NCBI GenBank assembly: GCA_034090015.1
Contig: JAXDTJ010000018.1
Coordinates: forward strand, 41,740 to 105,739
Source of the DNA: Paludibacteraceae bacterium
Lineage (GTDB): Bacteria; Bacteroidota; Bacteroidia; Bacteroidales; Paludibacteraceae
Reading direction: 5' to 3'
Length of the DNA stretch: 64,000 bases
Shown here in pieces: positions 7,768 to 56,770 of this stretch. The notes under the pieces were generated by a model. The model was not told the origin of the DNA. It did no database searches and saw only the letters and a list, made by a program, of their open reading frames with translations. Numbering within the stretch: position 1 is the stretch's first letter; every line of letters begins with the position of its first letter. Made by a program: the position numbers and the translations under genes.

Positions 7768-7775
7768 TACTTTTG
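7768..7775 (+). promoter_or_regulatory. -7 box TACTTTTG for sulfhydrylase-lyase operon
   Basis: TAnnTTTG preceded by an A-run, 64 nt before the ATG at 7840. Confidence 0.45.
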
Positions 7776-7797
7776 CAACCGTTTTTTACCCAACACA

Positions 7798-7836
7798 AAT
7801 CGTAATTCGTAAATTCGTAAATCGTAAATCGTAAAT
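7798..7836. repeat. CGTAA(A/T)T word tract in 5' leader
   Basis: AATCGTAATTCGTAAATTCGTAAATCGTAAATCGTAAAT. Confidence 0.85.
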
Positions 7837-7839
7837 ATC

Positions 7840-9018
7840 ATGTTGTCTTCTTCCACTCTCGCTATTCAGACGCCGTACCAACGGCAAGACGCATGGGGAG
7901 CCCTCTCCATGCCTGTGTATCATAGTGTCGCCTTTGAGTTCGACGATGCTGCCACCATGAGCGACGTCTTCTGCGGGCGGGTCATCGCCCCCGACTACTC
8001 GCGCGTGATTAACCCGACCGTTACCTGCCTTGAAGACAAGGTGAAAGCCCTAACGGGTGCCGCCAACGTCATTGCCCTCAACTCGGGCATGGCGGCGATT
8101 TCCGCTACGCTCTTTGCCCTCGCAGGGCAGGGGAAGAACATCGTGTGCTCGCGGCACCTCTTCGGCAACACCTACCAACTCATCGCCGACATGCTGCCCC
8201 GCTTCGGCGTGGAGGCACATATCTGCGACCTGACCAAGCCCGAGGATGTGGAGCAGGCGGTGGATGAGCAGACGGCTTGTCTATTCGTGGAAATCATCAC
8301 TAACCCCCAGTTGGAGGTCGCTGACCTGCGGATGTTGGCAGAGGTATGCCACCGAAAGGGCACCTGCCTTGTAGCGGACACGACGATGATTCCCTTCACG
8401 CAGTTCTCCGCCCACGCGCTCGGCGTGGACATCGAGGTGGTATCGTCCACCAAGTACCTCTCCGGCGGGGCGACGTCGCTCGGCGGGCTGGTGATAGACT
8501 ACGGAACGGTGGGGGACTTCGGCAAGCGCCTGAAGACGGACATGCTATATTGCCTCGGGGCGTACATGACGCCCCACGCGGCGTATATGCAGACGCTGGG
8601 GTTAGAGACGCTCGCCGTGCGCTACCAACGGCAGGCGGCATCGGCACTGACCGTAGCGCAACGACTACACGACGAGGCGGAGGGCGTGAAGGTGAACTAC
8701 ATTGGACTTGCTGACAACCCCTACCACGACCTAGCCGCGGCGCTGTTCGGGCAGACGGCGGGGGCGATGATGACCCTTGAACTGGAGAGCCAAGAGGCAT
8801 GCTTCCGCTTCATCAACCGGCTGCAACTCATCAAACGTGCAACCAACCTCTTTGACAACCGCTCGCTCGCCATCCACCCCGCCAGCACCATCTTCGGACC
8901 TTTCACGCCCGAACGCAGGCGCGAGATGGACGTGCGCGATACCGTGATTCGCCTCTCCATCGGACTCGAAGACCCCGCCGACCTCCTCGCCGACATCCTC
9001 CAAGCGGCAAAAAGATAG
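7840..9018 (+). CDS. PLP-dependent O-acetylhomoserine/O-acetylserine sulfhydrylase family enzyme
   Basis: Cys/Met-metabolism PLP family layout with the SSTKYLSGG PLP-lysine motif. The exact substrate cannot be decided by eye. Confidence 0.8.
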   Translation: MLSSSTLAIQTPYQRQDAWGALSMPVYHSVAFEFDDAATMSDVFCGRVIAPDYSRVINPTVTCLEDKVKALTGAANVIALNSGMAAISATLFALAGQGKNIVCSRHLFGNTYQLIADMLPRFGVEAHICDLTKPEDVEQAVDEQTACLFVEIITNPQLEVADLRMLAEVCHRKGTCLVADTTMIPFTQFSAHALGVDIEVVSSTKYLSGGATSLGGLVIDYGTVGDFGKRLKTDMLYCLGAYMTPHAAYMQTLGLETLAVRYQRQAASALTVAQRLHDEAEGVKVNYIGLADNPYHDLAAALFGQTAGAMMTLELESQEACFRFINRLQLIKRATNLFDNRSLAIHPASTIFGPFTPERRREMDVRDTVIRLSIGLEDPADLLADILQAAKR

Positions 9019-9020
9019 TT

Positions 9021-9090
9021 CCCCCTAAAATCCCTAGAAAATATAGAATCCCTAGAAAATCTAGAAAAACTAGAAAAAAAAATCCCCCCT
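9021..9090. repeat. CCCTAGAAAAT / CTAGAAAAA word tract between sulfhydrylase and lyase genes
   Basis: AATCCCTAGAAAAT x2, then CTAGAAAAA x2, bracketed by C-runs. Confidence 0.8.
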
Positions 9091-10221
9091 ATGCCCTCCA
9101 CCTTTGAAACCCTCATAGACCGCCGCGGTAGTGGTGCGCTGAAGACCGACGCCCTTCGGGAACGATTTCCGATGTATCGGAACGAAGACGGCAGGGACGA
9201 CCTGCTGCCGATGTGGGTCGCCGACATGGACTTCGCGACGCCCGACTTCATCCTCGACGCCATCCGCCAACGGCTGGAACACCCCATCTTGGGGTACACC
9301 ATTGAGCCAGAGGACTATCGCCCCGCTATCATCGACTGGGTTCAATCGCACCATGGATGGGAGATTCAGCCCGAGTGGATTTCGTATATCCCGGGCGTGG
9401 TCAAAGGTATCGGCACCGCCCTTAACCTCTTCACCAAGCCCGGCGACAGCGTGGCAATCATGGAGCCCGTCTATCATATCTTCCGGCAGGTGATAGAAGG
9501 CAACGGGAGAAAAGTGGTAGGAGGAAAAGAAGGCTCGCCTGCCGTCTTTCTCCTCTCCAACCCGCACAATCCGATTGGGATATGTTGGTCGCGGGAGTGG
9601 TTGCAGGCGTTGGCGCACTACTGCTACGAGCACCATATCCTCGTCATCAGCGACGAAATACACGCCGACCTCGCCCTCTTCGGGCATAAACATATCCCCT
9701 TTGCCAGCGTCTCGGAAGAGGCGGCGATGAACAGCATCACCTTCATGGCACCCACCAAGACCTTCAACATGGCAGGTATCATCAGCGCGTACAGCATTAT
9801 CCCCAACCCCGACATCCGCGAACGCTACTACTCTTGGCTTGACACCAACGAACTGAGCGAACCGAACATCTTTGCCCCTATCGCCACCATCGCCGCCTAT
9901 CGCAATGGCGAACCATGGCGGCAGGAACTGATAGCCTATATCGAGCAGAACATCCTCTTCGCCGAGCAGTATTTGGCTCAACACCTGCCACAGGTGAAGG
10001 TCGTTCGCCCCGAGGCGTCGTTCCTTGTGTGGCTCGACTGCCGAGCATTAGGGCTGTCGCATGACGCACTGATAGACCTCTTCGTCAACCGCGCCCGACT
10101 CGCCCTCAACGACGGCGAGATGTTCGGACACGGCGGCGAAGGCTTCATGCGCATGAACGTTGGCTGCCCGCGGGCTGTATTGCAGCAAGCTTTAGAGCGA
10201 CTGCGAGATGCCTGCCAATAA
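9091..10221 (+). CDS. MalY/PatB-type cystathionine beta-lyase / aminotransferase class I-II
   Basis: Motifs WVADMDF, SNPHNPIG, APTKTFNMAG (PLP Lys) and the GFMRMNVGCPR tail. It appears to lack ~20 residues between the NGRKV and LLSNPHNP blocks. Confidence 0.78.
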   Translation: MPSTFETLIDRRGSGALKTDALRERFPMYRNEDGRDDLLPMWVADMDFATPDFILDAIRQRLEHPILGYTIEPEDYRPAIIDWVQSHHGWEIQPEWISYIPGVVKGIGTALNLFTKPGDSVAIMEPVYHIFRQVIEGNGRKVVGGKEGSPAVFLLSNPHNPIGICWSREWLQALAHYCYEHHILVISDEIHADLALFGHKHIPFASVSEEAAMNSITFMAPTKTFNMAGIISAYSIIPNPDIRERYYSWLDTNELSEPNIFAPIATIAAYRNGEPWRQELIAYIEQNILFAEQYLAQHLPQVKVVRPEASFLVWLDCRALGLSHDALIDLFVNRARLALNDGEMFGHGGEGFMRMNVGCPRAVLQQALERLRDACQ

Positions 10222-10240
10222 AAAAAAGACCCATAAAACA

Positions 10241-10276
10241 AAACGCCATCCCGAAATCTCAGGATGGCGTTTTTCT
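10241..10276. terminator. bidirectional terminator between the lyase gene and rluB
   Basis: AAACGCCATCC-loop-GGATGGCGTTTTT, with an A-run upstream. Confidence 0.7.
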
Positions 10277-10296
10277 ATCAATCTGATAATCTATTC

Positions 10297-11583: not shown

Positions 11584-11671
11584 AATTAAGAATTATGAAT
11601 TAAGAATTAAGAGCGGCTTACGCCAACGGGATAACCACTGCCTCTTAATTCATAATTCTTAATTCTTAATT
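11584..11671. repeat. TTAAGAATTATGAA-word hairpin between rpmF and rluB
   Basis: Left arm AATTAAGAATTATGAATTAAGAATTAAGAG, 29-nt GC-rich loop, right arm CTCTTAATTCATAATTCTTAATTCTTAATT. Confidence 0.85.
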
Positions 11672-11683
11672 CTCAACATTCAC

Positions 11684-11869
11684 TTACGCTTCTGCTGCCT
11701 GCTCGATAGCCAGTTTGCCACGATAGTAGCCGCAAGAGGGGCATACGGTGTGGTAGATGTAGTGTGCACCACAGTTCGGGCAAATAGCCAATGCAGGTAC
11801 AATCAGTTTGTCATGCGTACGACGTTTCGCTTGTCTGGTGTGCGATTGTCTTCTTTTAGGATGTGCCAT
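11684..11869 (-). CDS. rpmF: 50S ribosomal protein L32
   Basis: MAHPKRRQSHTRQAKRRTHDKL start, CPNCG...CPSCG zinc ribbon, 61 aa. Confidence 0.95.
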   Translation of the reverse strand: MAHPKRRQSHTRQAKRRTHDKLIVPALAICPNCGAHYIYHTVCPSCGYYRGKLAIEQAAEA

Positions 11870-11947
11870 AGTTGTGTTATAATTTTACAGAATAATGTTA
11901 TACGTTTTGACTTGCCGCCTTCAAGTTAGTAGCCACGCAGAATAGCC

Positions 11948-12413: not shown

Positions 12414-12421
12414 CAAAATTA
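12414..12421 (-). promoter_or_regulatory. -7 box TAATTTTG for yceD-rpmF-rluB
   Basis: TAnnTTTG on the minus strand, 17 nt upstream of the yceD ATG. Confidence 0.4.
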
Positions 12422-12497
12422 CTACTTTTTTTTGAAACTCACAAACTTTTCCGCAAAAAAAAACGCACGGATATTTGCATAGTTCGTTTTTTTTGTG

Positions 12498-12505
12498 TAC
12501 CTTTG
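12498..12505 (+). promoter_or_regulatory. -7 box TACCTTTG for glucokinase-deacetylase
   Basis: TAnnTTTG 81 nt before the ATG at 12587. Confidence 0.45.
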
Positions 12506-12535
12506 CGGGCGTTTTAAGCATTTTTTGGGCAAAAA

Positions 12536-12562
12536 ATCGTAATTCGTAAATCGTAAATCATT
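12536..12562. repeat. CGTAA(A/T)T word tract in glucokinase leader
   Basis: AAATCGTAATTCGTAAATCGTAAATC. Confidence 0.85.
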
Positions 12563-12586
12563 CTAACACTTAATACATTATCATTT

Positions 12587-14223: not shown

Positions 14224-14348
14224 CAACATATAATTACCGTATAATTAACCATTAATTTTTCTTTGCTGAATTATTAGGAATACATACACGTAGAAATGTC
14301 CTCAATGAAAATAATTAATGAATAATTACACGTTAATTATATGTTAAA
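14224..14348. repeat. ACATATAATTACCGTATAATTAACC-word hairpin
   Basis: The left arm is ~85 % identical over ~50 nt to 56661-56712. The right arm is an imperfect complement (TTAATTATATGTT). Confidence 0.7.
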
Positions 14349-17479: not shown

Positions 17480-17505
17480 ATTCTGATAATCAGCGTTTTG
17501 TAATA

Positions 17506-17548
17506 AAAACATGGAAATCGTCAATTGACGTTTTCCATGTTTTTTTTG
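17506..17548 (+). terminator. terminator after AraC-like gene
   Basis: AAACATGGAAA-TCGTCAATTGACG-TTTCCATGTTTTTTTT. The 3' half plus T-run is then duplicated (17534-17575). Confidence 0.7.
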
Positions 17549-17603
17549 ATGATTCCCATGTTTTTTTTGATGATTTCTGTGCGATATTTACCAAAAAAAG
17601 TAG

Positions 17604-17611
17604 TATCTTTG
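17604..17611 (+). promoter_or_regulatory. -7 box TATCTTTG for symporter operon
   Basis: AAAAAAAGTAGTATCTTTGC context, 276 nt before the ATG at 17888. Confidence 0.45.
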
Positions 17612-17640
17612 CAGACTTTTTGAGAAAATTAGACCGTCTT

Positions 17641-17880
17641 GCGACTGTCAGACCGCTGTCCGACTGATTTACTGGGGACGCGGGCGGCTCGCCCGCGGGC
17701 CCGTCGGGCCCGAACAGCGGGTGTGGGCCATGTGATATCCTCCACGGCTTGCGCCTTGCCCGGGGGCGAGACGCCCGCGTCCCCAGTAAATCAGTCGTTC
17801 AGCGCAGCGGTCGGACAATGAAATGGTCCCGATAAATCGGGATGCAAGCATCTGACAGCGAAGCGGTCAGAAACATCTGT
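17641..17880. repeat. composite element: CAGACCGC-word palindrome with nested GC-rich MITE-like insert
   Basis: Perfect 25-bp inverted repeat GACTGATTTACTGGGGACGCGGGCG (17662-17686 / 17772-17796), flanked by GACCGC and GCGGTC words. Confidence 0.8.
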
Positions 17881-17887
17881 TAATCCC

Positions 17888-21511: not shown

Positions 21512-21829
21512 ATGAAAAAGATTCAGTTAGCACTTATGTGCGCAGTAGTGGCAGTGCTTTTTGCCTGCAAACCCAATGGTGTCAGTGTGAAGGACATGGA
21601 CGCTACCAAGTTAGACAACACCACCCCCAAATGTTGGGCATATACCATCGTTTATTCCGATGGAAAGACCACAGAAGCCTATTTGTGGGGTACAGAGCAG
21701 GAAATCGTGCTCAAGTTGCAAACAGTCATCAAGAACGCGGAACACACCGTTGCCAACGAGCCCAAGGACATCACCTACCGGGCAGACGGCACCAAAGACG
21801 AACAATCCTGCATGGATAAGAATATGTAA
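21512..21829 (+). CDS. small lipoprotein, unknown function
   Basis: MKKIQLALMCAVVAVLFAC lipobox, 105 aa. Confidence 0.6.
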   Translation: MKKIQLALMCAVVAVLFACKPNGVSVKDMDATKLDNTTPKCWAYTIVYSDGKTTEAYLWGTEQEIVLKLQTVIKNAEHTVANEPKDITYRADGTKDEQSCMDKNM

Positions 21830-22023
21830 GACCGCAGCAAGACCGTCTGACGACTGTCAGACCGCGCTTCGCGCTGAAAGACAAAAGATCGCTCACTTCG
21901 TTCGCTGTCAGACTGATATAGTCTCAAATGCTGAATCAGTCTTTCAGCGAAGCGGTCGTACAGTGAAACGGTCAGACAGCGAAGCGGTCGTTCAGCGAAA
22001 GCGGTCTAACAGCACAGCGGTCA
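21830..22023. repeat. ~190-bp CAGACCGC-word palindrome after second lipoprotein gene
   Basis: Same architecture and centre (GACTGATATAG...CTGAATCAGTC) as 19536-19692. Confidence 0.8.
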
Positions 22024-22034
22024 TAATAATCAAT

Positions 22035-23129
22035 ATGCACTCCCGTAATCTCACATACGATGTAGTCAAAGGTCTTGGTATTCTGTTGGTTATCTTTGCT
22101 CATTTCTCTAACCGTTGGCAGATAGAGAACATCTTTTTTTCTTTTCACATGCCGCTATTCATCTTGGTGGCAGGCTTGTTCGATAAGGGCGAAGCGCATA
22201 TCAAGGACTTTGGCAAGCGCACGCGGCAGAACGCGTGGCGGTTGCTGGTACCCTATTTCGGCACACTCATCTATATGTGCCTAATCTCATGGATATGGGA
22301 TGCCTATACAGGAGAAGAGACACTCAATCGCTTGCCGTTGGTGCGTCTTGTCATTAGCACGGGCGATTTCTATGCCACGCCCTACGGAGAGGCATGGTGC
22401 GGACCGCTGTGGTTCCTCTTCGCGCTCTTCATCACGCGCGAACTCTTCTTCTTGCTACGCTGCGGCATTCGGAACCCCTATGTCGTCTTGCTGGTATGCA
22501 CCGCACTCTCTTTCACGGCGAGTGTGCTTTATCCTTTGCTGGCACCTATGGCATGGAATCCCCTGCCGGGAATAGGCATGCTTATCTTCTATGCCATCGG
22601 CTGGTTTGCCCACCAAAGACATATCCCCGCCATTGCTAAGGTGCTGAGTATCATCGCGTGGCTCGCTGTCATCTATTGGTATTTGTGGGGCGGTGCCGCT
22701 GCCCATTTAGACATGCGCACCTGCCATGCCAATGCGCTGGAGGTGCTCGGTGCTTGCGGCGGCTCGCTATTGCTCTACGGCTTCTGCCGCTATCTTCTTT
22801 CGGCGCTCGAGGAACTGCAGACATGGTGCGAACATCGTGGATGGAAGTTCGCCCCTGCCCCTTTCTGGACATGGTGTGGCAGAAACTCCATGCTCATCCT
22901 CTGCGTGCATAGTTTTGACTTGGTAACCAATAAGTTTGCATTTATCATGACTTGGGCAACGGCTCTCTCTCCGTGGTTGGCTACGCTGGACAGCGCATGG
23001 CTTGCACTGCTCCGTGCGGCTATCACCCTGCTGGTGGCGCTGCTCATAGACTTAGGCTTGCACTTGTTCTACCACCTGCGCGACCGCATCTTCCCCAACA
23101 ACTTGGAGCACATGGCGCAAAGCATATAA
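22035..23129 (+). CDS. acyltransferase family 3 (OafA/YrhL-like) membrane protein
   Basis: About 10 hydrophobic helices. The N-terminal DVVKGLGILLVIFAHF pattern fits this family. The upstream 125 codons of track ORF 21660.. run through a palindromic repeat and are rejected. Confidence 0.7.
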   Translation: MHSRNLTYDVVKGLGILLVIFAHFSNRWQIENIFFSFHMPLFILVAGLFDKGEAHIKDFGKRTRQNAWRLLVPYFGTLIYMCLISWIWDAYTGEETLNRLPLVRLVISTGDFYATPYGEAWCGPLWFLFALFITRELFFLLRCGIRNPYVVLLVCTALSFTASVLYPLLAPMAWNPLPGIGMLIFYAIGWFAHQRHIPAIAKVLSIIAWLAVIYWYLWGGAAAHLDMRTCHANALEVLGACGGSLLLYGFCRYLLSALEELQTWCEHRGWKFAPAPFWTWCGRNSMLILCVHSFDLVTNKFAFIMTWATALSPWLATLDSAWLALLRAAITLLVALLIDLGLHLFYHLRDRIFPNNLEHMAQSI

Positions 23130-23161
23130 AACTGCGTGTAGGGAAGCCTCTTCGAGGCTGT

Positions 23162-23257
23162 ACACGAAGCGAAGCGGAGTTAAAAACACGAAGTTGCATA
23201 CACGAAGCGAAGCGAAGTTTCCTACACGAAGTTATAACACGAAGTTAAAACACGAAG
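23162..23257. repeat. six ACACGAAG octamers abutting the giant ORF start
   Basis: Copies at 23162, 23186, 23200, 23224, 23237 and 23250. The last three are 13-bp tandem units ending 6 nt before the ATG. Confidence 0.85.
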
Positions 23258-23263
23258 TTTGAT

Positions 23264-26200
23264 ATGAAAAACCGTTTATTCTTTTTATGCGTTGCCATGC
23301 TGGTGGCATGCGGCGTAACGATGGCTGACAACACTTGGTTTGAGGAGGGTCGTAACTTCTCTGCCTATTCTTTGGGTCAAGGCAAAGTGCATGTGAAGGT
23401 GCTGGTCTTTGCGAGAGGAGGTACGAATAACCACTGGGCAACGACGGGAAACGGCGGAAGCTTCGTCTATGCCTATTCCTCCGGAAATACAGTTTATGCG
23501 TTGCAGTACGAAGGCGATAATAATTACAACTGTGAGAACGACTACAAAGGTTGGGTGAAGTTTCAAGTGAAGAGCGGTACGGTGATTATTACCAATTCCT
23601 ACGGAGGCAACAACAGCACCACATACACTCCGAGCAACGGTTGGGTAAATCTATACCTATCGCGTACAGGAGAGAGCAACACCCCTACTTATTTGGAGTT
23701 CGACTGGTATCCGCCCACAGTCTTGGATAACAGGTCCTTCGACTTGAAAGCGACCATCACCGATACACGAAAGTATGGGGATACATGGACGCACACGTGG
23801 TACTTAGGCTCTTTCTCCGGCCTCTCTTTACAAGCGCCTATGCTCTATCAACCCGTGTTCTATAGCGTTGGAGAAGATGGTCAGCCGGGGCACGGACAAG
23901 TGGCTATTCCGTATGTGGTGTACCAAGAGCCGAAGAGTTACACCACCTCCACCACCGGCAATACTACCTTCATCTGCAAAGAGCGGACAGGTCAACTGCT
24001 GGCAAAGACCACCGACACGGTGCAGTATGGTTTTTCTGCCAACTTCACTGTCGTGCGCGAAGACAAGACCACCACGGTAGTAACTTCCAGCAAGGTGGAC
24101 ATCCCTGCGTTCCACCGTATCTATGATTTTAAAGCAGAACATTATGTACCGGAAGGTATGGATAGTATGTGGTATATAAAAACCAAGACCACCCTCAGTT
24201 GGAAGGTGCGGACACCCTGGGCAACCGATATCATGCCTATGGATATGTTCCAGATTCAGCGCGCCTACCATCCCGACTTCTCCGATGCCGAGACCCTCGC
24301 ACTCATCCCTTACGAGACAGGCAAGGGCACCTACCAGTGGGTGGACGACACAGAAGGGGCGATGAAAAACCTGAGAACGGATACTATTGACATGAATATC
24401 TACTATCGTGTAAACCGCGTCTCTACCACCAACTGGGGCTATGAAGGGCACGAGTGGGTGCGTACTACCGCCATCCGGAAAAACACCAGCTTAACGCATT
24501 TTGACTCCGATTATAGTAACTACCGCAAAGCAGACGATTTTCAAGAAACAAGGCGCGTGTTGTTTACATTAGAAACATTGACTGATCTAAACATGTCATA
24601 CTGTTGGGATGAGAGAGCCTCCATACGCGTACGCCGACTGGCTATCTCTGCCGTGGATACTATCATCACGGAGAGAGTATTCCCCGGCTCTATGGTGCGG
24701 CCCTTGCCCCCAGACCCCAAACGAGGCAACCCTTATTTCAGTACCCTCTACCGGTTTGACTTCGAAGATGTAGCAGACATCCCTTGTTGCCACTATGAGT
24801 ATGAGGTATATATAGACGACAGCCAAAGTCTGCTGAAGTTAGATGACTTGTACCACCGCTATCAAGAACCGCTGAAGTTAACCTCCTTAGACCTTTACTA
24901 CACCGATGCGGCTTCTATTGCTACCTTCCGCGTGTCGGACGGAGTCTATCCCGACCGTATCTTCCTGCAATGGAACCCAACATCAGGCAGCGTAGACTCC
25001 TTCTATGTATATCGGAGCACAGACCAGAGGCAAGGAGGCGAGGAGATTGCCCGCATCGCAGGACAGCACTATTATATAGACACGGATGTCGTCCCGGGCA
25101 CGGTTTACTACTATACCCTAATGGCGTCTTATCTTTGCGGCGGTACGCATCAGACGCAGTTTACCGAGCAAAAGAGAGGCAGTCTGTCGCCCTACGGATG
25201 CATCCGCGGGCGTATCACATACCCCAATGGCACCGGCAACGTCGGCGTAACAGTACGGGCTGAGGGTATAAGTGGAGATGTTGCTTCTATCACCCCCAAC
25301 TACCTCTATGCCGACTCCACACGCGTAGTATATAATAGTACGCAAGACCCCGTTTCCCTGAGCGGCGATTTCTCTATCCAGATGATGGTCAAAGACTCCG
25401 ACCTCACTATCGTTAGCGGTACCGGACACCCATTGCTATATAGCACCGATAGTACTTTCCGCCTCGAACTATCCGGCGAAACTATCCGCTTCACCATGGG
25501 CAACCAGACCAGACTACTCAGCCTACGTAACGAACACAGCCAAAACAACGATAACAACATTTTCTCCCTCACCCTCACCTACTGTGCCCACACCCAAACG
25601 GTAACCCTCTACCGCGATGAGCAACAGACCGCTACCGCCACTATCCCCCTGCACAACATCCATAGCCGCTTGCGCTTCTGCTGCCCCTACTCGCTCGCCC
25701 CCGTCTCTTCCTACGGCGTGGGCATTGATGAAGTGCGTATCTTCCACCGCGTGCTCTCACAAGACAACGTCCGCACATACTCGCGACATGCCTTGGCGGG
25801 AGACGAAAACGGACTGATACTCTACTACAAGTTCGACATGCTATCTTTATCTGATATCGCTATCCCCAATATAGCAAAGATGCAAGCCACGGACGGCAAC
25901 GGAATGATGGCAGCGAACAACGCACTCATTTGGGACAAGGCAAAAAATGATGATGATTACCGATATATCCACCTCCCGGGAGACCTCATCACGCGCTTCG
26001 AGGCACTCACCGACGAGAGCGGCAACTATGTCTTAGCGGGCATACCCTTTGCCAACGGCATTACTTACAGCCTTACCCCCACAGCCCAACACGGCACCTT
26101 CCGCTATAACGGCACATCCTCTGCTTCAGCCACCATCACGATTGGCAACACGCGCCCGGAAGCAACCGCTGTGGACTTCATGAACACCGATGCCGTGCGC

Positions 26201-29200
26201 TTCAGCGGCAGGATACTCTACGAACGCTCCACCATACCGGTGAAGGGCGTGCATTTCTTGGTGAACGGCATACTCGCCACCGATGCCACAGGCAACCCCG
26301 TCGAGACCAACGAGAGCGGTAACTTCCAGTTTGAATTGCCCAAAGCACCGATACGGGTGCAGGCTGTGAAAGACGGACACTGCTTTGCCAACGATGGATA
26401 CCTGATTCTCAACGGAGACACCCTCTTCCAACCTACCGACAACATCGATGCCATTCGCTTCTACGACCGAACGAAGGTACGCCTCATCGGGCGTATTGCC
26501 GGCGGTAACGACCAAGGACTACTCCCCTTAGGCTTCGGACTCAGCCGTAACAACCTCGGCGACCATATCTGCATGGTGCTGGAGTTAGAGGGCGACAACG
26601 CCGCGCAGATAGTCTTCGACCCCTTGGACAAGACCCTCAACCGCCTTGACACCACTATCGTCCATGCCATAGACACCACCCAACATACCGACATTTCCTT
26701 GCAGAGCAAGCGGATAATGATTTACCCCGACCCGGCTTCCGGAGAGTTCTTTGCCGACCTCTTCCCCGTGAAGTACAAAGTAACCCAACTGACCGCACAA
26801 GGCTATAGCACGCTCACCAACGAGAAGACCGCCATGCAGGTCATAGACCTCACCAACAAACTCGACAGCCAATACACCTATTATACTGACACCATTCAAG
26901 GAGGTGCGGTCTCCAGGCCGCACCAAGAGAACTATGACGAAACCATGGTGCGGTTAGGAGACCGCACCTCCTTGGCCTTCCACGACACCTTCCGACATAT
27001 CTACCATAGCCCCATCACCGTAACGCCCGTACAGAGCCTTTACGGCATGGAGGTGGGCTATTTCGGCGTCGAGCGTATCGCTGTGCAACGATGGGACGGA
27101 GAGTCGGAATCCCAGTCGGTAGCACTTGCCAAAGAAGACGGCACCTATGAATACCTCTTCGGAAAACCCATCTTCACCGAAGGCAAATACACCTTCAATA
27201 TCTACGCGCACGAGGACTATTACTATAATGGCGACCGCAACCTCGGCAAGCACGACCGCGTGATGCTCCACGAAGGCGAGGTGAAAATCTATAACGGCAT
27301 GCACTCCAACACAGAAGTGCTGACCGGGACGCTCGATAAAGACGGTGTCTGCCGCAACATGGTCCTCCGCGCGGATTATCCCACCTACACGCGCGTGGAC
27401 GAAGACGCTGCGCGAAACATACAGGTTACTGTAACCTACGAGCGTGAATCCCATACTACCGAGCCTTTGCGGGTGCTGGTATTCGCCGACCGACGAGAGG
27501 GAACAGAGGCAATATCCTCCACCACGGCAGACATCACACTCTACGATATCCTGCGCGACCCGCCCGGCTCCGGCAGTTTCGCTACACTCAGCGCAGGAGC
27601 ATCATACTCCGCATCGAAAACATGGGCGTTATCCGTCAAAGCGGGTGTCACACTCGAGTTCGAAAAAGGAGTAAAATATGCCGGATTTGTGGGAGCGGTT
27701 ACTGCCGTCCCGGGACTGCTATCAGCGCAAAACTATAACATAAACACAACCACACCATTCAGCATTCCGCTGGTGTATAATTATTCCATCAACAAAGATT
27801 ATAGTTATTCCTATTCCACCACCGAGACCATACGAACGGGTAGTGATGCCTACCATGTAGGTGCAAAAGCGGACATATTCATGGGGGCAGTGGAGAATCT
27901 CTATATATCTACTTGCCACGGTATGGCTGTGCTGGACTCGCTGACCTATCTATCGATGGCTGCGCAGAAGGAGAACGGCACCATGCGGCATATCGCTACC
28001 GCACGAAATCTACAAGGTGAACTACGCCACCTCGTGGTAGCGCCTAAACTCACCTTAGACATGGTGCAGGATGCCACTTTCTGCTACACCCAAGAGCACA
28101 TCCTCACCACCGTGATTCCCAAACTGGTAGCCCAACGCAATGCCTTGGTGCTTTGCGTGGACTCAGCGGCGGCAAGAGCAAAAGCCAATCAAGAGAAAAA
28201 GCGTATCTACTACACTACGATGAGCCCTGATAGTGCCGACTTCGCAATAACACGCGGGAAAGGGTACGACTTTGTTGACCCCGTAAATAATACCGATAAT
28301 ACACCCGAGGCGGATAAAGTAGCCGGTATCAACCGTGCCATCCTCGCTTGGACCAACCTGATAAAACAAAACGAGAAGGAGAAGGTCAATGCACAATATA
28401 CCACCGACAAAAAAACATATTCCGTGGCAGGTGGCTCTACGCTTACCTATTCCGAAACGGTAACTTACGGCAGCAAATATAACGAAATACCCTTCAACTT
28501 GGGCGGTTCTGCCGGAGCAAGCAATCTGAGCAATCTATGGGGAAACGCCATCAACAAAACCATACAGACGCTTCTACAGGTAGGTGGAAAGGCTGATTCT
28601 ATCACCATTGAGAGCGAAGCGCCGGGCAGCAAGTTCTCCTTCAGTTTGAAACCCATTGCCAATATAAGCACCCAACCAACTTACGCCGCCTCCGAACAGA
28701 AGTCGCGCACCTATGGTTATACGCTATCCCCAGACCGGTTCGGATATATGGATGTGCAAGTAATGCGCATGAAAGACACGATAAGCGATTTCTACCAAAA
28801 CGCGGAGGATACCCTTGCGTTAACAGGAGAGAAAGCCAATGGTAAACTGCAAAGTTACAGCAGTTTCATCTTCCGCCAGTTGGCAGGTGCCAGCCGCTGC
28901 CCGTGGGAGGATGCCGACTCCACACTCTTCTACCAGCCCGGCACGCCGCTGAGCATTGCCACCGCGCGCTTGGAAAACCCGCAGATAACCATCGCCCAAC
29001 GCGAGATAAGTAATGTGCCTGCCGACCAACGCGCCATCTTCCAAATCGCCCTCAACAACGAGCAGACCTACTACACGGGCATAGGTGCAGCCACCCTGCC
29101 CTTTGAACTGTCGGTTATGCCGGGTAGCAACCCCAACGGACTCAAGATAACCATAGACGGCCAACCCCTCACCTCGGATCCTTTATCCATCACTCTCCCG

Positions 29201-32200
29201 CACGGCACTACGATCCACAAGACCATAGAGGTGGAGCGCGGACAGGGTTACGACTTCGAGGACATCACGCTCCTCCTGCGCTCTACCTGCGATATCATGG
29301 AGTATGCCCTCGCCGCCTTCTCCGTCCATTTCGTACCTGCCGCCACCCCTGTCTCCATGCCTACCCCGCATGACCAATGGGTGCTTAACACGCAGTCCGC
29401 ACGCGACTCCGCAGGCTACTACCTACCCGTCTCCATCGACGGCTTCGACATCCACTCCGACGGCTTCGACCATATCGAGTTGCAGTACAAGCCCCACACC
29501 GCCTCCGATGCTGATTGGGTGAACATCTGCTCCTACTACGTCTCCGACAGCCTCTACGAGCAGGCATCGGGCACCAAGCAGCGTATCGCGGGCAGCAAGA
29601 TAGACAACATCCGTTTCTACGGCGGGCGCGACCCCATGGAGCAGGAGTACGACCTCCGTGCTATGGCGTTCGCACGCTACGGCAACGGCTTCGTTACTCG
29701 CGCCTCGGAGGTGCTCCACGGCGTGAAAGACACACGCCGACCCGAACTCTTCGGCACCCCAACGCCTGCCGACGGCATACTTTCCGTAGGCGATGTGCTC
29801 TCGCTGCGTTTCAGCGAACCCATTGCAGGAAACCTATTGGACGAGGATGTTAATTTCGAGGTGATTGGTACGGATGATGTTCTCTCACTCACCACCTCCC
29901 TCCATTTCACAGGCGAATTCTCTTGCTACGCCCGCACAAAGGTTACCCGCAACATGAACGCCCGACCCTTCACCATTGAGGCAATGATTAAACCTACCGG
30001 AAATGCAGCCTTGCAAACCATCTTCGCGCTGGACAACGAGAAAGAGCCTCTGTGGTTCGCATGGGCGGGAGACCATCTCGAAGCACAGATAGGAAAAGTG
30101 CGACTGCAATCCGCCACCGTAGAGCCTATCCTCGACTTCACACGAGTAGCACTTACCTACAACCTGGAGGACTCTATTGCCCGATTCTTTGTTGGAACAC
30201 AAGAGATTAATTATGAATTAAGAATTAAGAATTATGAGCATTCCGAGCACTCCGATAACTCCGAACACTCCGATTACTCAGCAACCAACGCGAAGCCGTC
30301 GTACCATAGTGCTGCTCAACTGATTTGGGGTAACAATGCTACTTATGATGCTCCCTTCCAAGGGGATATGTTGGAAGCACGACTATGGACGAAAGCACTC
30401 ACGCAAGCCGAGTTGGCGCGGTATAAAGACTGCCATCTGACGGGCTACGAGCGCGAACTGGTGGCATATTACCCGATGAACGAAGGGAAAGGCACTACTT
30501 GCGAGGACAAAGCCAATGGTGCCACCCTCACCCTTAACGGCACCTCGTGGGTACTGCCCGAAGGTATGTCTATCCACTTGAACGGCGCAGAGCCTATCTG
30601 TCTCAACGGCGACCTGCTCAGCCGCTCCGACATCGAAGACCTGACCCTGCTCTTCTCCTTCAAGGCAGACGAAAACCTCGCTGATACATCTGAACTCCTG
30701 CATGCAGGCAAGCATACCATGCACCTTACCTCGGATGCCTTGCTATGGAGAACCGACAGCACCGAACGCCGTGCACCGGGGGCTTTTGCAGATGCTCAGT
30801 GGCACCAGTTGGTGGTGGCTATTGACCGCACGAGGAATATAGCCTCTCTGCTTGTGGATGGCAACACACTGCTTGCCACAGCGGCTGACGACATACCCGC
30901 CTTCGCAGACAGTGTCTGGACACTGGGGCAGTCTTTCCGAGGACATATCGATGCTTTCACGCTCTTCGAACAGGCATTGCCTACCTATGTGATAGAACGC
31001 TACAACAATCTCGCACCGCAAGGAGACGAGATGGGACTTATCGCATATATGCCTTTCGGGCAGTATATCCTCCAACCCAACGGACGCTACGAGTTAGTCT
31101 ATTCGCCGGAGAACGCCCGTATCTTCCGCGATGCCGACGGGAATACGGTAGAGAAGCACCAAAAGCTGGTGATGAACAACCTCACACGCTACACCGATAA
31201 AAAGGATTTTGCACCCTTGCGTAATGGGAATGCCCGAAAGAAACTTAACTTCTCGTGGGCAAGCAATGGCGATGAACTGATGATAAACATCAACATGCCC
31301 GACCATGAGATTAACCATCGCAACCTGCTCCTGACGGTGCAGCGCGTGGAGGACCAACATGGCAACGCCATGCTCAGCCCCCACACATGGGCGGCTTATG
31401 TGCACCGGCAGCAACTGCGTTGGGACAACCCGCAGATTAACTATGAGCAACAGGTTCCTGGTTCCGAGTCTCAGGTTTCAAGTGCGCAGCCTTACACCTT
31501 CACCGCCACCATCCGCAACCACGGTGGTACTACGCGGGAGTATCATCTTAACTCCCTTCCCTCGTGGCTCACGGCGCAGCCGGCTTCCGGATTCCTTGCG
31601 CCGCTGGAGACGCAGACCATCACCTTCACTGTGGACGAAGGGCTGAACATCGGCGAATATACCGAGTATATCTACCTGACCGACGACCAACAGTTGGACG
31701 ACCGCTTGTTGCTCAACCTGCACATAAAAGCCACCTGCCCTTGGACACTCGACCAGACGGAACTCAACCGCTCCATGTCGCTAATCGGGCAGGTACAAAT
31801 ACCCGTCGAGAACGGTACAATACAAATAGATACCGACTCACAGGATATGGTGGCAGCCTTCGTTGGCGAGCAGTGCGTGGCTTTGGCTCCCGTGCGGCTG
31901 AATCAGCAGACAAAGCCGGTTACCTACATGACCATCTACGGTAACGATAGCCATGCAGGCAAGGCGCTACGCTTCCAACTCTGGCATGCCAAGAACGGCA
32001 AGGTCTATATCCTTGCCCCGAGCGAAGACATCCCCTTCCGCGCCAACGAATGTTATGGCTGCGAGGGTACACCCATCACGCTCACCGTGACCGACCGACA
32101 GGTGCAACTGCTCACGCTGCAGCCCGGGTGGAATTGGTTCAGCCTGTATCTCAAGCCCACCTATCGCTCGGACCTCACGCGCCTCTTCTGTTCATCCGAC

Positions 32201-33994: not shown

Positions 33995-34053
33995 TTTTAG
34001 GTAGAAAAATACGCGAAAATGTCGTTTTGTTTGCATATATGGGAAAAAAGTGG

Positions 34054-34061
34054 TAACTTTG
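34054..34061 (+). promoter_or_regulatory. -7 box TAACTTTG for polyamine operon
   Basis: AAAAAAGTGGTAACTTTG context, 279 nt before the speB ATG. Confidence 0.45.
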
Positions 34062-34071
34062 TCGCCCCAAT

Positions 34072-34336
34072 AAATTTACGAATTACGATTTACGAATTAC
34101 GATTTTCCGTTAAAGACCATTAAAAGACCATTAAAAGTTTAAGTTATACTCCGTTAATTGCCGTTAATTATTCGTTAATTTTTTTGCCTCCATTAAAGAC
34201 CATTAAAGGTTCATTAAAGGCAAAGTTTTAATGGTTCTTTAATGGGCTTTAACGGAGAAAACAAAAAGAAATTAATGAATAATTAACGGTCATTAACGGA
34301 GAACGAAAATAATTAACGGGCATTAACGGAAAACGA
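34072..34336. repeat. word-repeat leader of polyamine operon (CGTAAAT, CCATTAAAG, CCGTTAAT words) with nested inverted repeats
   Basis: 34150-34182 is a near-perfect complement of 34270-34301. The inner pair is 34190-34220 / 34226-34247. Confidence 0.8.
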
Positions 34337-34340
34337 GATT

Positions 34341-35228
34341 ATGGAGAATTTTGCCGGATTAAGCGGGCGTTGGGCGGACGAAAAGACCGCGCGGATAGTG
34401 GTGTTGCCTGTGCCTTATGACAAGACGAGTTCGTGGGTACACGGTGCGGAGAAGGGACCGGAAGCCTTCTTGGAGGCGAGCGTGCAGTTGGAGTGGCTGG
34501 ACACGGAGACGCGGACGGAGGTCTATCGTCAGGGTATCCATACCGCCGCGCCCGTAACGGAAGACCGCACGCCGGCGTTGCTATGCGAGGCGGTGGAAGA
34601 ACGCATGGGGGCACTATGGGACGCGGGGAAGTTCCCCTGCATGATAGGCGGCAACCACACGGTGTCTATCGGTGCTTGCCGCGCGGCGGCGAAGCGTTTT
34701 GAGGGGCTGACGGTGCTGCAATTAGACGCACACAGCGACCTGCGACCCGAATACGAGGGGTCGGAGTTGAACCACGCCTGCATCATGAAAGAGGCGCAGA
34801 AAGTGGCGAAGACGGTGCAGGTGGGGATCCGCAGCCAGTGCGTAGAAGAGGCGGAGAACGCTGCGAAGAGCACGATTATATGGGCGCGCGAGATATGGGA
34901 AGACGAGACCTTCGGGCAGCGACCTGCCTCGGCGAGCGAGAGTTGGGCGTGGGAGAAGCGGGTATATGATGCGCTGACGGAGAATGTGTATCTGACCATC
35001 GACCTCGATGTGTTCGACCCTGCTTATCTGCCCTCTACGGGTACGCCGGAGCCCGGGGGCATGGGCTACTATCAGGTGCTGCACCTGCTGCGACCTGTGT
35101 TCGAGCGATACAACGTGGTGGGGTTTGATATCGTGGAACTCTGTCCGAGCCCGACCCGCCAAGCGCATGCGTCGCAGTACCTCGCCGCACGGCTGGCATA
35201 TCAGTTGATGACATACAAATTTATTTGA
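34341..35228 (+). CDS. speB: agmatinase (arginase/ureohydrolase family)
   Basis: GGNHTVSIG, LDAHSDL and DLDVFDP Mn-binding motifs, in a polyamine gene context. Confidence 0.85.
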   Translation: MENFAGLSGRWADEKTARIVVLPVPYDKTSSWVHGAEKGPEAFLEASVQLEWLDTETRTEVYRQGIHTAAPVTEDRTPALLCEAVEERMGALWDAGKFPCMIGGNHTVSIGACRAAAKRFEGLTVLQLDAHSDLRPEYEGSELNHACIMKEAQKVAKTVQVGIRSQCVEEAENAAKSTIIWAREIWEDETFGQRPASASESWAWEKRVYDALTENVYLTIDLDVFDPAYLPSTGTPEPGGMGYYQVLHLLRPVFERYNVVGFDIVELCPSPTRQAHASQYLAARLAYQLMTYKFI

Positions 35229-35305
35229 CAATTGGACAATTTACAATTTGACAATTATGCGCCGCATGGCTAATTGTAAAATTGTCAATTGTAAAATTGT
35301 AAAAT
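35224..35305. repeat. GACAATTT-word hairpin between speB and nspC
   Basis: Loop TGCGCCGCATGGC. The speB TGA lies inside the first word. Confidence 0.85.
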
Positions 35306-36560: not shown

Positions 36561-36645
36561 CTTGTAATTTGTAATTTTTAATTTGTAATTTTTAATTGCC
36601 ATTCGGCGAAAATAATTACAAATTAAAAATTAAACATTAAAAATT
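36561..36645. repeat. TGTAATTT-word hairpin between nspC and speA
   Basis: Left arm CTTGTAATTTGTAATTTTTAATTTGTAATTTTTAATT, loop GCCATTCGGCGAAA, complementary right arm. Confidence 0.85.
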
Positions 36646-38560: not shown

Positions 38561-38710
38561 CCCAGGACCCCCTCCTACTCCCCCTACAAGAGCACCCCAC
38601 TGCGCGTTGCTTGCGGGGACCCCGCGAGGGGGAGAGTATAAAATAACTATTGTATAACTAAAACTAATTTCCCAACTCCCTCCCTTGTAGGGAGGGTTGG
38701 GGAGAGTCCT
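38561..38710. repeat. GC-rich composite palindrome between speA and the dehydrogenase gene
   Basis: CCCCTACAAGAG on the left and CTCCCTTGTAGGGAGGG on the right. It ends at the ATG at 38711. Confidence 0.75.
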
Positions 38711-39966: not shown

Positions 39967-40063
39967 ACAATTTGAAAGTTAACAATTTGAAAATTTGAAA
40001 ATGACGATGCAGAATTAATCATTTTCAAATTTTCAAATTTACAAATTTACAAATTTTCAAATT
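39967..40063. repeat. TTTGAAAA-word hairpin between dehydrogenase and GT2 genes
   Basis: TTTGAAAATTTGAAAATGA - loop - TCATTTTCAAATTTTCAAA... Confidence 0.85.
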
Positions 40064-41028: not shown

Positions 41029-41128
41029 CATTTGACAATTTGACAATTTACTATTTTACAATTAACCATGCGGCGCATAGTTGTCAAATTGTAAATTGTC
41101 AAATAGTCAAATAGTAAATTGTCAAATA
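41029..41128. repeat. GACAATTT-word hairpin between GT2 and hypothetical gene (inverted copy of the 35224 family)
   Basis: The loop CCATGCGGCGCATAG is the reverse complement of the 35258 loop. Confidence 0.85.
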
Positions 41129-42392: not shown

Positions 42393-42454
42393 TTGATTTA
42401 TTACATTTTTTGTGAAAAAGTGTATATTTATTTGCAAATATAAAAAATAAGCAG

Positions 42455-42462
42455 TATCTTTG
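42455..42462 (+). promoter_or_regulatory. -7 box TATCTTTG for LRR surface-protein operon
   Basis: AATAAGCAGTATCTTTGC context, 266 nt before the ATG at 42729. Confidence 0.45.
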
Positions 42463-42496
42463 CATTATAATTTAGTAGCACTTCGCTATTTCCGTA

Positions 42497-42538
42497 GTGT
42501 ATCAGTTTAGACGTTCGTCTAAACTGATACACTTTTTT
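42497..42538 (+). promoter_or_regulatory. leader hairpin 1 + T6 (terminator/attenuator-like) downstream of the LRR operon promoter
   Basis: Perfect 16-bp stem GTGTATCAGTTTAGAC-GTTC-GTCTAAACTGATACAC followed by TTTTTT. Confidence 0.6.
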
Positions 42539-42570
42539 ATGCCTTTTTCATTCTATTTTTCGGTCTTTTA

Positions 42571-42613
42571 GTGTGTAAGTTTAGACGTTCCTCTAAACTA
42601 TCTCACTTTTTTG
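42571..42613 (+). promoter_or_regulatory. leader hairpin 2 + T6, diverged copy of hairpin 1
   Basis: GTGTGTAAGTTTAGACGTTCCTCTAAACTATCTCAC followed by TTTTTT. Confidence 0.5.
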
Positions 42614-42728
42614 TTTAACCTCTTTGTTTTCATCCTAATACATAAAACTATTTAGTCATCAAAAAAAACGATAGAGACACTATTGAGTATAATCATTTTT
42701 TTTAACCATAATAAATCAAATTAAAATT

Positions 42729-54952: not shown

Positions 54953-54978
54953 TTTGTTGTTTCAGGCAGATGTGTTGT

Positions 54979-56328: not shown

Positions 56329-56334
56329 GATGTT

Positions 56335-56445
56335 GATTAAGAATTAAGAATTATGAATTAAGAGTGCATTTTTGGGTCGTTATCGGTTCGGTATCGTCTC
56401 GTCATCGTCTCACTATTCTCTCGTGAATCACCCACGAATCACCTA
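56335..56445. repeat. three word families in the DUF4301 leader
   Basis: GATTAAGAATTAAGAATTATGAATTAAGAG, TCGT(T/C)ATCG words, and GAATCACC(C/T)A x2. Confidence 0.8.
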
Positions 56446-56500
56446 CGATTGACGGCTTGCAGACCGCTTTGGATAATGGAGCATACCCGATACCTGCACG

Positions 56501-56508
56501 CAAAGGTA
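56501..56508 (-). promoter_or_regulatory. -7 box TACCTTTG for DUF4301 gene
   Basis: TAnnTTTG on the minus strand, 172 nt upstream of the ATG at 56328. Confidence 0.4.
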
Positions 56509-56612
56509 ACACTTTTTCTTTATTTGGACAAATAAATTTCTGTTTTGACGGCTTATTTGCCCTATTTTCTGATAAAATAGGGGTGAGTCTTGCATATGTC
56601 AAAAAAAAGTAG

Positions 56613-56620
56613 TAAATTTG
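56613..56620 (+). promoter_or_regulatory. -7 box TAAATTTG for lipid kinase-dut operon
   Basis: AAAAAAAAGTAGTAAATTTGC context, 150 nt before the ATG at 56771. Confidence 0.45.
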
Positions 56621-56660
56621 CAACGGAATTTTTGGGCACTTCTTTTTGTGCTGACCTTCT

Positions 56661-56745
56661 TTAACATATAATTATCGTATAATTAACCATTAATTCTTTC
56701 ATTGCGGAATTATACGGGCAATTATATGGCAATTAATGTTTATAA
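56661..56745. repeat. ACATATAATTATCGTATAATTAACC-word element in lipid-kinase leader
   Basis: Homologous to 14224-14275. Confidence 0.75.
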
Positions 56746-56770
56746 TAGTACGAGAAACAACCCTTAGAAA

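Follow-up and report, generated by a model that had tools for sequence, protein, structure and literature searches.

In a 64,000-nucleotide (nt) stretch of DNA from an uncultured gut Paludibacteraceae bacterium (Bacteroidales; assembly GCA_034090015.1, contig JAXDTJ010000018.1, positions 41,740–105,739 of the forward strand), hereafter the window, seven genes are preceded by long 5′ leaders, most of them rich in short repeated words. We consider it probable that the seven stretches are 5′-leader DNA and that the words are genus-specific, interspersed modular repeats, passively co-transcribed, and not leader-specific regulatory structures. The repeats fill about a quarter of the non-coding DNA and spare the promoter cores and nearly all coding sequence. 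The same modules turn up at sites that are not orthologous, the content of orthologous spacers differs thoroughly between sister species, and the distance from promoter box to ATG is roughly double that in related genera. The elements are of three kinds: tandem arrays of 7–11-nt units (AAATCGT, AATTAAG, ACACGAAGTT, TAGGTGATTCA), inverted arrays that form long hairpins, and at least one GC-rich palindrome resembling REPINs, which are named after the repetitive extragenic palindromes (REPs). The window was compared with loci fetched by scanning genome collections with four window proteins as queries; these loci, designated by L numbers, are genome fragments rather than whole genomes. The sister species form a small group, mostly labelled Paludibacteraceae or Bacteroidales bacterium, with 90–99% protein identity to the window, and the more distant Paludibacteraceae share 55–85% protein identity with it.

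The bare −7 motif TAnnTTTG is not enriched in the window, with 33 matches against 28.5 ± 4.6 expected. Ten strong, correctly oriented intergenic boxes (5177−, 7678−, 7768+, 12414−, 12498+, 17604+, 34054+, 42455+, 56501− and 56613+) share a 35-nt architecture made up of TTTGCatat, an A-run, gtaG and TAnnTTTGC. Assessed as sigma-ABfr promoters, they carry the −7 element in 10/10 and the −33 element in 9/10 cases: the −33 TTG is held in one register, with a 20-nt spacer to the −7 element, everywhere except at 17604. None of the ten boxes has a G at the nn positions, and the refined −7 consensus of Flavobacterium johnsoniae, TAHHTTTG, spanning −12 to −5, likewise admits no G at the variable positions (PMC6847099). 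Since the F. johnsoniae box ends at −5, the true 5′ ends are expected about 5 nt downstream of the leader starts used here, which follow the original prediction. A matrix derived from the ten boxes and applied to the 64 kb at a threshold of at least 12 bits returned a single additional match, a spurious 12.5-bit site within the 42455 promoter region, and 0–1 matches on shuffled sequence. An eleventh box at 58239 (TACCTTTG) was dropped as a promoter, as it is devoid of the −33 element and the A-run, and a scan for sigma-70-type promoters gave counts within the shuffled expectation, as expected for Bacteroidota.

These ten matrix-supported promoters divide, as the original prediction had it, into three with short leaders (16–23 nt, repeat-free) and seven with long ones (64–279 nt, five of them longer than 100 nt). 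The seven predicted intervals are exact, in that each starts right after the TAnnTTTG box and stops immediately before the ATG of a real gene, and the start codons agree with the N-termini of the orthologues. In Bacteroides thetaiotaomicron, the 5′ untranslated regions (5′ UTRs) mapped by differential RNA sequencing have a median length of 32 nt, with 13.5% of them above 100 nt (PMC7366714). Among the fetched loci, the median box-to-ATG distance at strong promoters is 76 nt in the genus (n = 49) and 38.5 nt in other Paludibacteraceae (n = 414; Mann-Whitney p = 3e-4). Both comparisons support the claim that the leaders are long for the phylum.

Three of the long leaders consist of single-orientation arrays and are unstructured. 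The first (7776–7839, plus strand, 64 nt) lies behind the sigma-ABfr-type promoter of a metC-like/aminotransferase unit (7744–7775, plus strand; −33 TTG, −7 TACTTTTG) and carries (AAATCGT)5.6 at 7797–7836, 3 nt short of the ATG (z +1.5). The second (12506–12586, plus strand, 81 nt), driven by the promoter of a ROK glucokinase unit (12474–12505, plus strand, TACCTTTG; kept in L120–L123), holds (AAATCGT)3.7 at 12534–12559 (z +1.4). The sixth (56329–56500, minus strand, 172 nt) belongs to a DUF4301 gene, whose promoter (56501–56532) carries TACCTTTG on the minus strand, and contains (ATTAAGA)4 at 56336–56363 and (GAATCACCCAC)2.2 at 56425–56448 (z +1.1).

The four other long leaders are predicted to be structured. 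Leader 3 (17612–17887, plus strand, 276 nt), behind the promoter of an SDF symporter unit (17580–17611, plus strand, TATCTTTG; kept in L032, L034 and L036), folds into one composite hairpin at about 17632–17872 with a free energy of −154 kcal/mol (z −9.8). Leader 4 (34062–34340, plus strand, 279 nt) opens the polyamine operon, whose promoter (34030–34061, plus strand, TAACTTTG) is kept in L001 and L003–L008; it consists of (TTACGAA)n at 34074–34105 followed by a 246-nt hairpin at 34095–34340, made of inverted CCGTTAATT and CCATTAAAG word arrays (−91 kcal/mol, z −9.8). Leader 5 (42463–42728, plus strand, 266 nt), behind a promoter (42431–42462, plus strand, TATCTTTG) ahead of a low-GC island of leucine-rich repeat (LRR) proteins, contains no words and reaches z −5.5 against dinucleotide shuffles and −3.6 against plain shuffles. 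Leader 7 (56621–56770, plus strand, 150 nt), of a unit beginning with yegS and dut, follows a promoter (56589–56620, plus strand, TAAATTTG) kept in L040 and carries a dispersed module beginning with ACATATAATTATCGTATAATTAACC and its inverted partner at about 56664–56746 (z −2.9); further copies of the module are found at 14225–14274 of the window and in L121, L123, L004 and L036. The three short leaders follow minus-strand promoters and belong to the fbp gene (promoter 5177–5208, leader 17 nt), a pectate lyase gene (7678–7709, 23 nt) and the yceD-rpmF unit (12414–12445, 16 nt).

Recurring 7-mers, counted on either strand, cover 62, 46, 55, 85, 58, 40 and 56% of leaders 1 to 7, against 9–41% in shuffles, and arrays detected with Tandem Repeats Finder (TRF) cover 62, 32, 8, 65, 0, 30 and 19%. 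The description of the leaders as mostly repeat is thus apt for about five of them and overstated for 12506–12586 and 56329–56500; the 7-mer repeat content of 42463–42728 is no higher than its own low-complexity background. Their description as structured likewise fits four of the seven, two at z of about −9.8, but not the three single-orientation leaders, which behave like shuffles (z +1.1 to +1.5).

The promoter boxes are kept in the orthologous sister loci for all four promoters open to comparison, with the DNA 3′ of them changing; the agmatinase promoter GTAACTTTGTCGCCCC is unchanged in L001, L003, L004 and L008 and shows one or two changes in L005–L007. A search nearer the seven ATGs for TAnnTTTG with at most one mismatch in promoter context found none. 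Because conserved promoters lie upstream and no second −7 box lies nearer the ATGs, the repeats are most likely transcribed as 5′ leader, as judged from the sequence. Transcription might instead start inside or downstream of the repeats from another type of promoter, dependent on an extracytoplasmic function (ECF) sigma factor or borne by the modules themselves, which would make the repeats promoter-upstream DNA. Only the housekeeping type was modelled here, and in B. thetaiotaomicron secondary start sites as well as a second promoter motif are known (PMC7366714). We nevertheless regard this as improbable, given the missing internal boxes, the conservation of the upstream promoters but not of the intervening DNA, and the occurrence of such repeats within operons, where they are necessarily transcribed.

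Repeats of the same kind are found well beyond the leaders. TRF arrays cover 24.9% of the non-coding and 1.7% of the coding DNA of the window, a 15-fold difference, and the promoter cores are essentially array-free. The 89 TRF rows, with periods mainly of 7–11 nt, are two to four times denser than in other Paludibacteraceae and have the properties of heptamer-type repeats: head-to-tail units of 6–11 nt, overwhelmingly intergenic and genus-restricted, differing in copy number and word identity between sister species. By class, arrays cover 26% of the leaders, 36% of the intercistronic DNA, 17% of the DNA upstream of promoters and 0% of three small convergent regions. The leader density falls within the range of other non-coding classes (17–36%), and the repeats are not specific to leaders. 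Across 21 sister-genus sequences, arrays occupy 18–21% of divergent, co-directional and convergent spacers alike, against 5–9% in other Paludibacteraceae. Per locus, the array density is 3–12% in most sister-genus loci (1.9% in L033) and mostly 0.4–1.5%, with a few values up to 3.6%, in other Paludibacteraceae.

The polyamine operon illustrates this distribution, all but one of its spacers being hairpins of inverted AT-rich word arrays (z −4.7 to −6.7). Outside any leader, an (TAGGTGATTCA)5 array lies upstream of its promoter (33889–33943, plus strand). The first intercistronic hairpin (35223–35305, plus strand) extends from the agmatinase stop codon to 6 nt before the next ATG and is built of inverted ATTTGACA arrays; its counterpart in the sister species is made of entirely different words. 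Further plus-strand hairpins are formed by TTGTAAT and AATTAAA arrays (36562–36645), AATTTGAA and ATTTTCAA arrays (39969–40063) and ATTTGACA and TTGTCAAA arrays (41030–41128). The exception (38600–38710, plus strand) is a GC-rich module, GGGAGGG...TATAAAATAACTATTGTATAACTAAAACTAAT...CCCTCCC, which abuts the ATG and is present in L001 at another operon junction. Elsewhere in the window, inverted (AATTAAG)n arrays pair into a hairpin in the spacer that follows rpmF (11584–11673, minus strand), and an array of ACACGAAGTT and CGAAGCGGAG words (23161–23259, plus strand) ends 4 nt before the ATG of a giant open reading frame (ORF); the same words stand before four other genes in sister species. Arrays frequently begin on or beside the upstream stop codon. 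When whichever array stood nearest the ATG was scored, 10 of 19 spacers had an array end no more than 8 nt from the next ATG, where uniform placement would give 2.35 (P ~1e-5).

A few further arrays deserve description. The longest of the window (63614–63733) starts with (ATTATGA)3 overlapping the stop codon of a SpoU-methylase gene and continues as (CTCTCAA)12.6 up to an ATG at about 63735. The 3356-residue giant ORF (23264–33334) contains intergenic-type words in frame at 30209–30279, 32681–32784 and 33065–33100. There, AATTATGAATTAAGAATTAAG is read as NYELRIK in one frame at two sites and is followed by a HSEHSDNSEHSD-type repeat at the first and by (CAACGCAAA)4.7 at the second, with a (GTGGCCA)5 array further downstream; these words represent insertions that a surface protein tolerates, or else they mark several ORFs fused across stop-free spacers. 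An acyltransferase ORF (21660–23129) carries (CAGCGAAGCGGTCAGA)4.9 at 21945–22023, within its first 130 codons and upstream of the Pfam domain (residues 133–463). Its true start may lie downstream of the array, but the whole stretch is 98% conserved in L036. In L120 (13950–14445), a composite of about 100 nt made of TTTAATGG, TTAACGG and AAATCGT words is tandemly triplicated, so that repeats are nested at two scales.

Even with proteins 96–99% identical, species differ wholesale in their orthologous leaders, and operon spacers carry unrelated word sets between species with flanking proteins 96–100% identical. The agmatinase leader is about 13 nt long in L004 and about 60–90 nt, free of the window words, in L005–L007; with the CCGTTAATT/CCATTAAAG hairpin it measures 180–400 nt in L003, L008, the window and L001. 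The L001 leader has an extra insertion in the hairpin loop, and in L003 the 5′ arm is decayed and TAGGTGATTC is present three times instead of five as in the window. The 3′ arm alone of this module is found in L042, in the leader of another gene. The ROK glucokinase leader has a similar length in sister species but not the AAATCGT array. In L040, whose YegS is 99% identical, the 3′ half of the yegS leader is swapped for ACACGAAGTT words, and in L041 and L042 this 3′ half is swapped for the CCATTAAAG module found in the agmatinase leader of the window. The divergent region between DUF4301 and yegS spans 442 nt in the window and about 130 nt in a neighbouring genus, where the two leaders measure about 19 and 49 nt; the DUF4301 leader thus has 172 nt in the window against about 19 nt in this orthologue.

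The SDF leader shows a similar turnover around a constant backbone. About 100 alignable nt (the first 47, a middle 33 and the last 21) show 100% identity among the window, L032 and L034, whereas a different 76-nt insert occupies the window's insertion point in L036, and the L033 leader is unrelated and carries (CGCGGGTCTGT)5. Just upstream of the SDF promoter, the region 17500–17575 comprises a hairpin followed by T8, after an AraC-family gene, and then a perfect 21-nt direct repeat (CCATGTTTTTTTTGATGATTC twice). This arrangement is kept in L032, L033, L034 and L036, unlike the SDF leader, and may correspond to a terminator plus a candidate regulator binding site.

The original prediction saw the repeats as cis-regulatory, structured 5′ leaders, each tuning the stability or translation of its own mRNA, and held that such leaders would be expected to matter for these processes. 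The positions of the repeats between promoter and ATG, and hence their likely transcription, agree with our data; the idea of dedicated structured leaders does not fit the turnover described above or the three leaders that are unstructured. Its favourable points are the location downstream of conserved promoters and the two extraordinarily stable hairpins of leaders 3 and 4. Identical words, however, also occur in intercistronic and promoter-upstream DNA, orthologous leaders vary in their words and in length, from about 13 to 400 nt, and L003 and L042 have lost hairpin arms or retain them in decayed form. Among four aligned agmatinase leaders, none of 40 pairs shows compensatory changes, although four sequences give this analysis low power, and the consensus energy is −19 kcal/mol against −91 kcal/mol for the window leader alone. 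A search of Rfam gave no match at gathering thresholds and only two spurious eukaryotic matches at E ≤ 0.5.

The predicted energy of opening the region −18 to +12 around the ATG falls approximately within one standard deviation of the shuffled-leader control for five of the seven leaders. Like the lack of compensatory changes and of an Rfam match, this speaks for passive co-transcription rather than for gene-specific regulatory leaders. For the SDF leader, the opening energy is even lower than with shuffled leaders (5.9 versus 8.5 ± 2.0 kcal/mol). The last 60 nt before start codons show the A excess typical of the family and an AUG deficit, which does not reach significance in the small genus sample. 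Ribosome profiling of F. johnsoniae indicates that low structure and upstream adenines matter for initiation, and not a Shine-Dalgarno (SD) site (PMC6847099); repeats are therefore plausibly tolerable right up to the ATG. Terminator-like hairpins with long stems and T-tracts stand at expected unit ends, at 5246–5283, 10240–10273 and 33788–33824, the last (plus strand) being a hairpin of unique sequence at the end of the unit preceding the polyamine operon. The same scan flagged none of the word hairpins, which have no T-tracts, and transcription should therefore not stop there.

The words form a shared, dispersed vocabulary. Promoter words aside, it is the word families that supply the 10-mers with the widest spread over different spacers: AACTTCGTGT/ACACGAAGTT is present in 13 spacers from 10 loci and never in coding DNA, and CGAAGCGGAG, TAAATCGTAA, AATTAAGAAT and CTGGGGACGC are the other frequent ones. 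Composite modules of 30–110 nt from the window leaders have non-orthologous copies, 84–97% identical, in the window and in sister species. Arrays born purely in situ, by replication slippage and template switching in each spacer, would be ordinary simple-sequence repeats with long units and would require no dispersal. Their 7–11-nt units do resemble the heptamer-type repeats of Xanthomonas and Nostoc (PMC4692102), copy numbers vary between species (as for TAGGTGATTC, above), and the upstream stop codon is the starting point of some arrays, as though these were seeded locally. Slippage probably alters copy number, but the shared vocabulary is beyond its reach: identical words and composites stand at many non-orthologous sites in different species, and the palindrome of the SDF leader has been cleanly inserted and exists in further copies at other places. 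We therefore hold a purely local origin to be unlikely.

This palindrome, a GC-rich REPIN-like insertion of 138 nt (17658–17795, plus strand), forms the apex of the leader-3 hairpin and is absent from L032 and L034. A self-palindromic unit of about 28 nt (ACTGGGGACGCGGGCGTCTCGCCCGCGG) is present in it twice, in opposite orientations, with a spacer of about 70 nt between the copies. The combination of a palindromic unit with doublets and singlets that marks REP/REPIN elements was found for the GC-rich CTGGGGACGCGGGCG family only, with doublets in the window (17658–17795), L006 (5091–5208) and L034 (about 118–235), and solo units in the window (63390–63417), L040 and L032. The solo ACTGGGGACGCGGGCGTCTCGCCCGCGG unit at 63390–63417 lies inside the SpoU-methylase reading frame; REPs within genes are known from other phyla. 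The element has no GTAG tag, and its GACG/CGTC overlaps the stem base, off the position expected for the CGTC family as described in PMC3733652. Viewed as a miniature inverted-repeat transposable element (MITE), it has inverted ends of about 25–28 nt, is cleanly absent from L032 and L034, and shows a possible GTC duplication of only 3 bp. No gene for a REP-associated tyrosine transposase (RAYT) was found in the window or the genome fragments, and the window proteins contain no transposase domain. The hairpin-apex motif ATGCGSCGCAT was rejected as a family mark, having just two non-coding copies, both in the window.

Leader 5 stands apart. It contains a 44-nt direct repeat, with copies at 42495–42538 and 42569–42612, each a hairpin followed by a T-run. 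The first hairpin (42496–42533, plus strand) has perfect 18-bp arms, of which 17 pairs were scored in the terminator scan, and a T6 tail; it lies 34 nt downstream of the −7 box, the unit being repeated 74 nt on at 84% identity. For this stretch alone, it is quite possible, if somewhat short of an even chance, that promoter, first hairpin and T-run make up a small-RNA gene or a transcription attenuator and not a repeat-filled leader. The putative small RNA would be about 70 nt long, with the hairpin as its 3′ end. Besides the duplicated hairpin and its distance from the promoter, this possibility is favoured by the terminator scan, in which no other within-leader hairpin was flagged, and by the position at the head of the low-GC LRR surface-protein island; it is weakened by the lack of an Rfam match and of a recovered orthologous locus.

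Several observations weigh against passive co-transcription, some of them in favour of cis-regulation. The SDF backbone is invariant at 100% identity, against only about 92% at third codon positions of the SDF gene; at least one leader is therefore partly constrained, and the constrained part may be functional. Opening the agmatinase start region is predicted to require about 4 kcal/mol more than it would behind a shuffled leader (10.3 versus 6.3 ± 1.2 kcal/mol), and the start regions of nspC and the saccharopine-dehydrogenase gene are also predicted to be markedly occluded. In co-directional spacers, ACACGAAGTT, CGAAGCGGAG, AAATCGT and CTCTCAAC are found in sense orientation only, ACACGAAGTT arrays standing before five different genes and always in this orientation; as all informative spacers belong to plus-strand units, a transcription-linked bias is here inseparable from a replication-linked one. 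Sense bias and the placement of arrays next to start codons, well above random expectation, could reflect selection at the RNA level instead of neutrality. Moreover, we infer the co-transcription from sequence, no mobilising enzyme was found among the window proteins, gene calls in the comparison loci are crude, and orthologous loci are non-independent samples. On balance, leaders that each regulate their own mRNA seem to us unlikely.

The same features (SDF backbone constraint, sense bias and arrays abutting start codons) keep a functional role alive at low probability. In a further reading, which builds on the array ends 0–8 nt from the ATG in 10 of 19 spacers and on the sense-oriented ACACGAAGTT arrays before five genes, this SD-blind lineage would construct the translation-initiation region itself from mobile, sense-oriented word cassettes. 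We think this unlikely. If it held, swapping or resizing cassettes would shift mRNA stability and initiation from one species to another, amounting to rapidly evolving expression control that is propagated by an undescribed mechanism making both tandem and inverted arrays.

For the interspersed repeats that we favour, the following course may be proposed. The repeats would spread by some mobilisation or recombination process, the arrays would grow and shrink through slippage and inverted duplication, and they would be co-transcribed passively with neighbouring genes. In leaders, they would be tolerated up to the ATG because Bacteroidia initiate translation without an SD site, and also because the word hairpins have no T-tract and the −18 to +12 region mostly remains as open as in random sequence. 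The very stable hairpins (17612–17887 and 34062–34340) would probably affect mRNA decay or initiation incidentally, for instance by serving as substrates of double-strand RNases; perfect stems of at least 25 bp, as in leader 3, are typical substrates of double-strand-specific RNases in other bacteria. If this is correct, interspersed repeats have been able to invade almost all transcribed spacers of the genus, reaching the start codons themselves, with an approximate doubling of leader length over that of its relatives. It would offer a natural experiment on the tolerance of sequence and structure before start codons in SD-independent translation, with ready-made orthologous genes whose leaders of about 13–400 nt would allow the influence of leaders on expression to be gauged in Bacteroidia. 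In such genomes, annotating long hairpin leaders as riboswitch-like regulators calls for comparative support.

The genes of the window (GC content about 53%) are ordinary housekeeping genes, such as ligA, dapA and those for fructose-1,6-bisphosphatase, a metC-like lyase, the ROK glucokinase and the SDF symporter, together with the polyamine operon (agmatinase, nspC, speA, saccharopine-dehydrogenase-like), yegS, dut and rimM. The low-GC island (41–46%) carries three BspA/LRR surface proteins, and neither a transposase nor a reverse transcriptase was found among the window proteins. The gene for the small ribosomal protein L32, rpmF (about 11692–11880, minus strand), lies between yceD-like and pseudouridine synthase genes, below the 80-residue ORF cut-off. 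An assembly artefact was rejected, since equal repeat classes are present in genomes that other studies assembled independently, and the source run, when assembled independently, gives identical sequence. Two Logan short-read contigs from run SRR21357801, L249 and L250, carry exactly the agmatinase and YegS proteins of the window, and L249 is 100% identical to it over 1.25 kb. Both stop within leader repeats (at about 34073 and 56666 of the window), which shows that such repeats fragment short-read assemblies. Exact-protein look-ups gave matches from this run alone, confirming the sequence and adding no variation. A metagenome scan with the agmatinase promoter pattern returned 49 loci, all generic Bacteroidota promoters of other organisms and none with an agmatinase gene.

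A full-text literature search found no description of such repeats in Bacteroidales. The 5′ UTRs of other Bacteroidota share the −33 TTTG, the −7 TAnnTTTG with its G at −5, and the A-rich, AUG-poor region before the start (PMC7366714, PMC6847099), but typically measure about 23–32 nt, the extra length here being repeat DNA. The closest known kinds of repeat are the modular BOX-type elements of pneumococci, REP/REPIN elements and the intergenic heptamers of Xanthomonas and Nostoc. Pneumococcal BOX, RUP and SPRITE repeats are intergenic, co-transcribed with neighbouring genes and judged to be parasitic and not dedicated regulators (PMC3049150). Like BOX, in which variable tandem boxB units between inverted ends give extensive secondary structure, the present repeats are small, modular and restricted to a genus or species. 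This likeness is one of description: there are many word families here instead of three, with much shorter units of 7–11 nt, and the arrays adjoin start codons in an SD-independent host of the Bacteroidia. REPs and REPINs are high-copy extragenic palindromes, present as inverted doublets and singlets, that form hairpins in single-stranded DNA or mRNA (PMC3116915, PMC3733652). They are often transcribed, between co-directional genes, and the 138-nt element of the SDF leader shares their inverted-doublet build and solo units; most words, however, are AT-rich tandem arrays rather than single palindromes, and REPs lie mainly downstream of genes, whereas the repeats here are commonly in leaders and close to start codons. 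The heptamers of Xanthomonas (GGGAATC), Nostoc (GGGGAYT) and Calothrix have units of about 7 nt and are about 90% intergenic (PMC4692102). As here, these repeats are genus-specific, tandem, sometimes in inverted pairs, and widely variable in length and sequence between close relatives. They differ in consisting of one G-rich motif per genus, discussed as a G-quadruplex former and placed near the end of the upstream gene, where the present genus has dozens of mostly AT-rich words assembled into composite modules.

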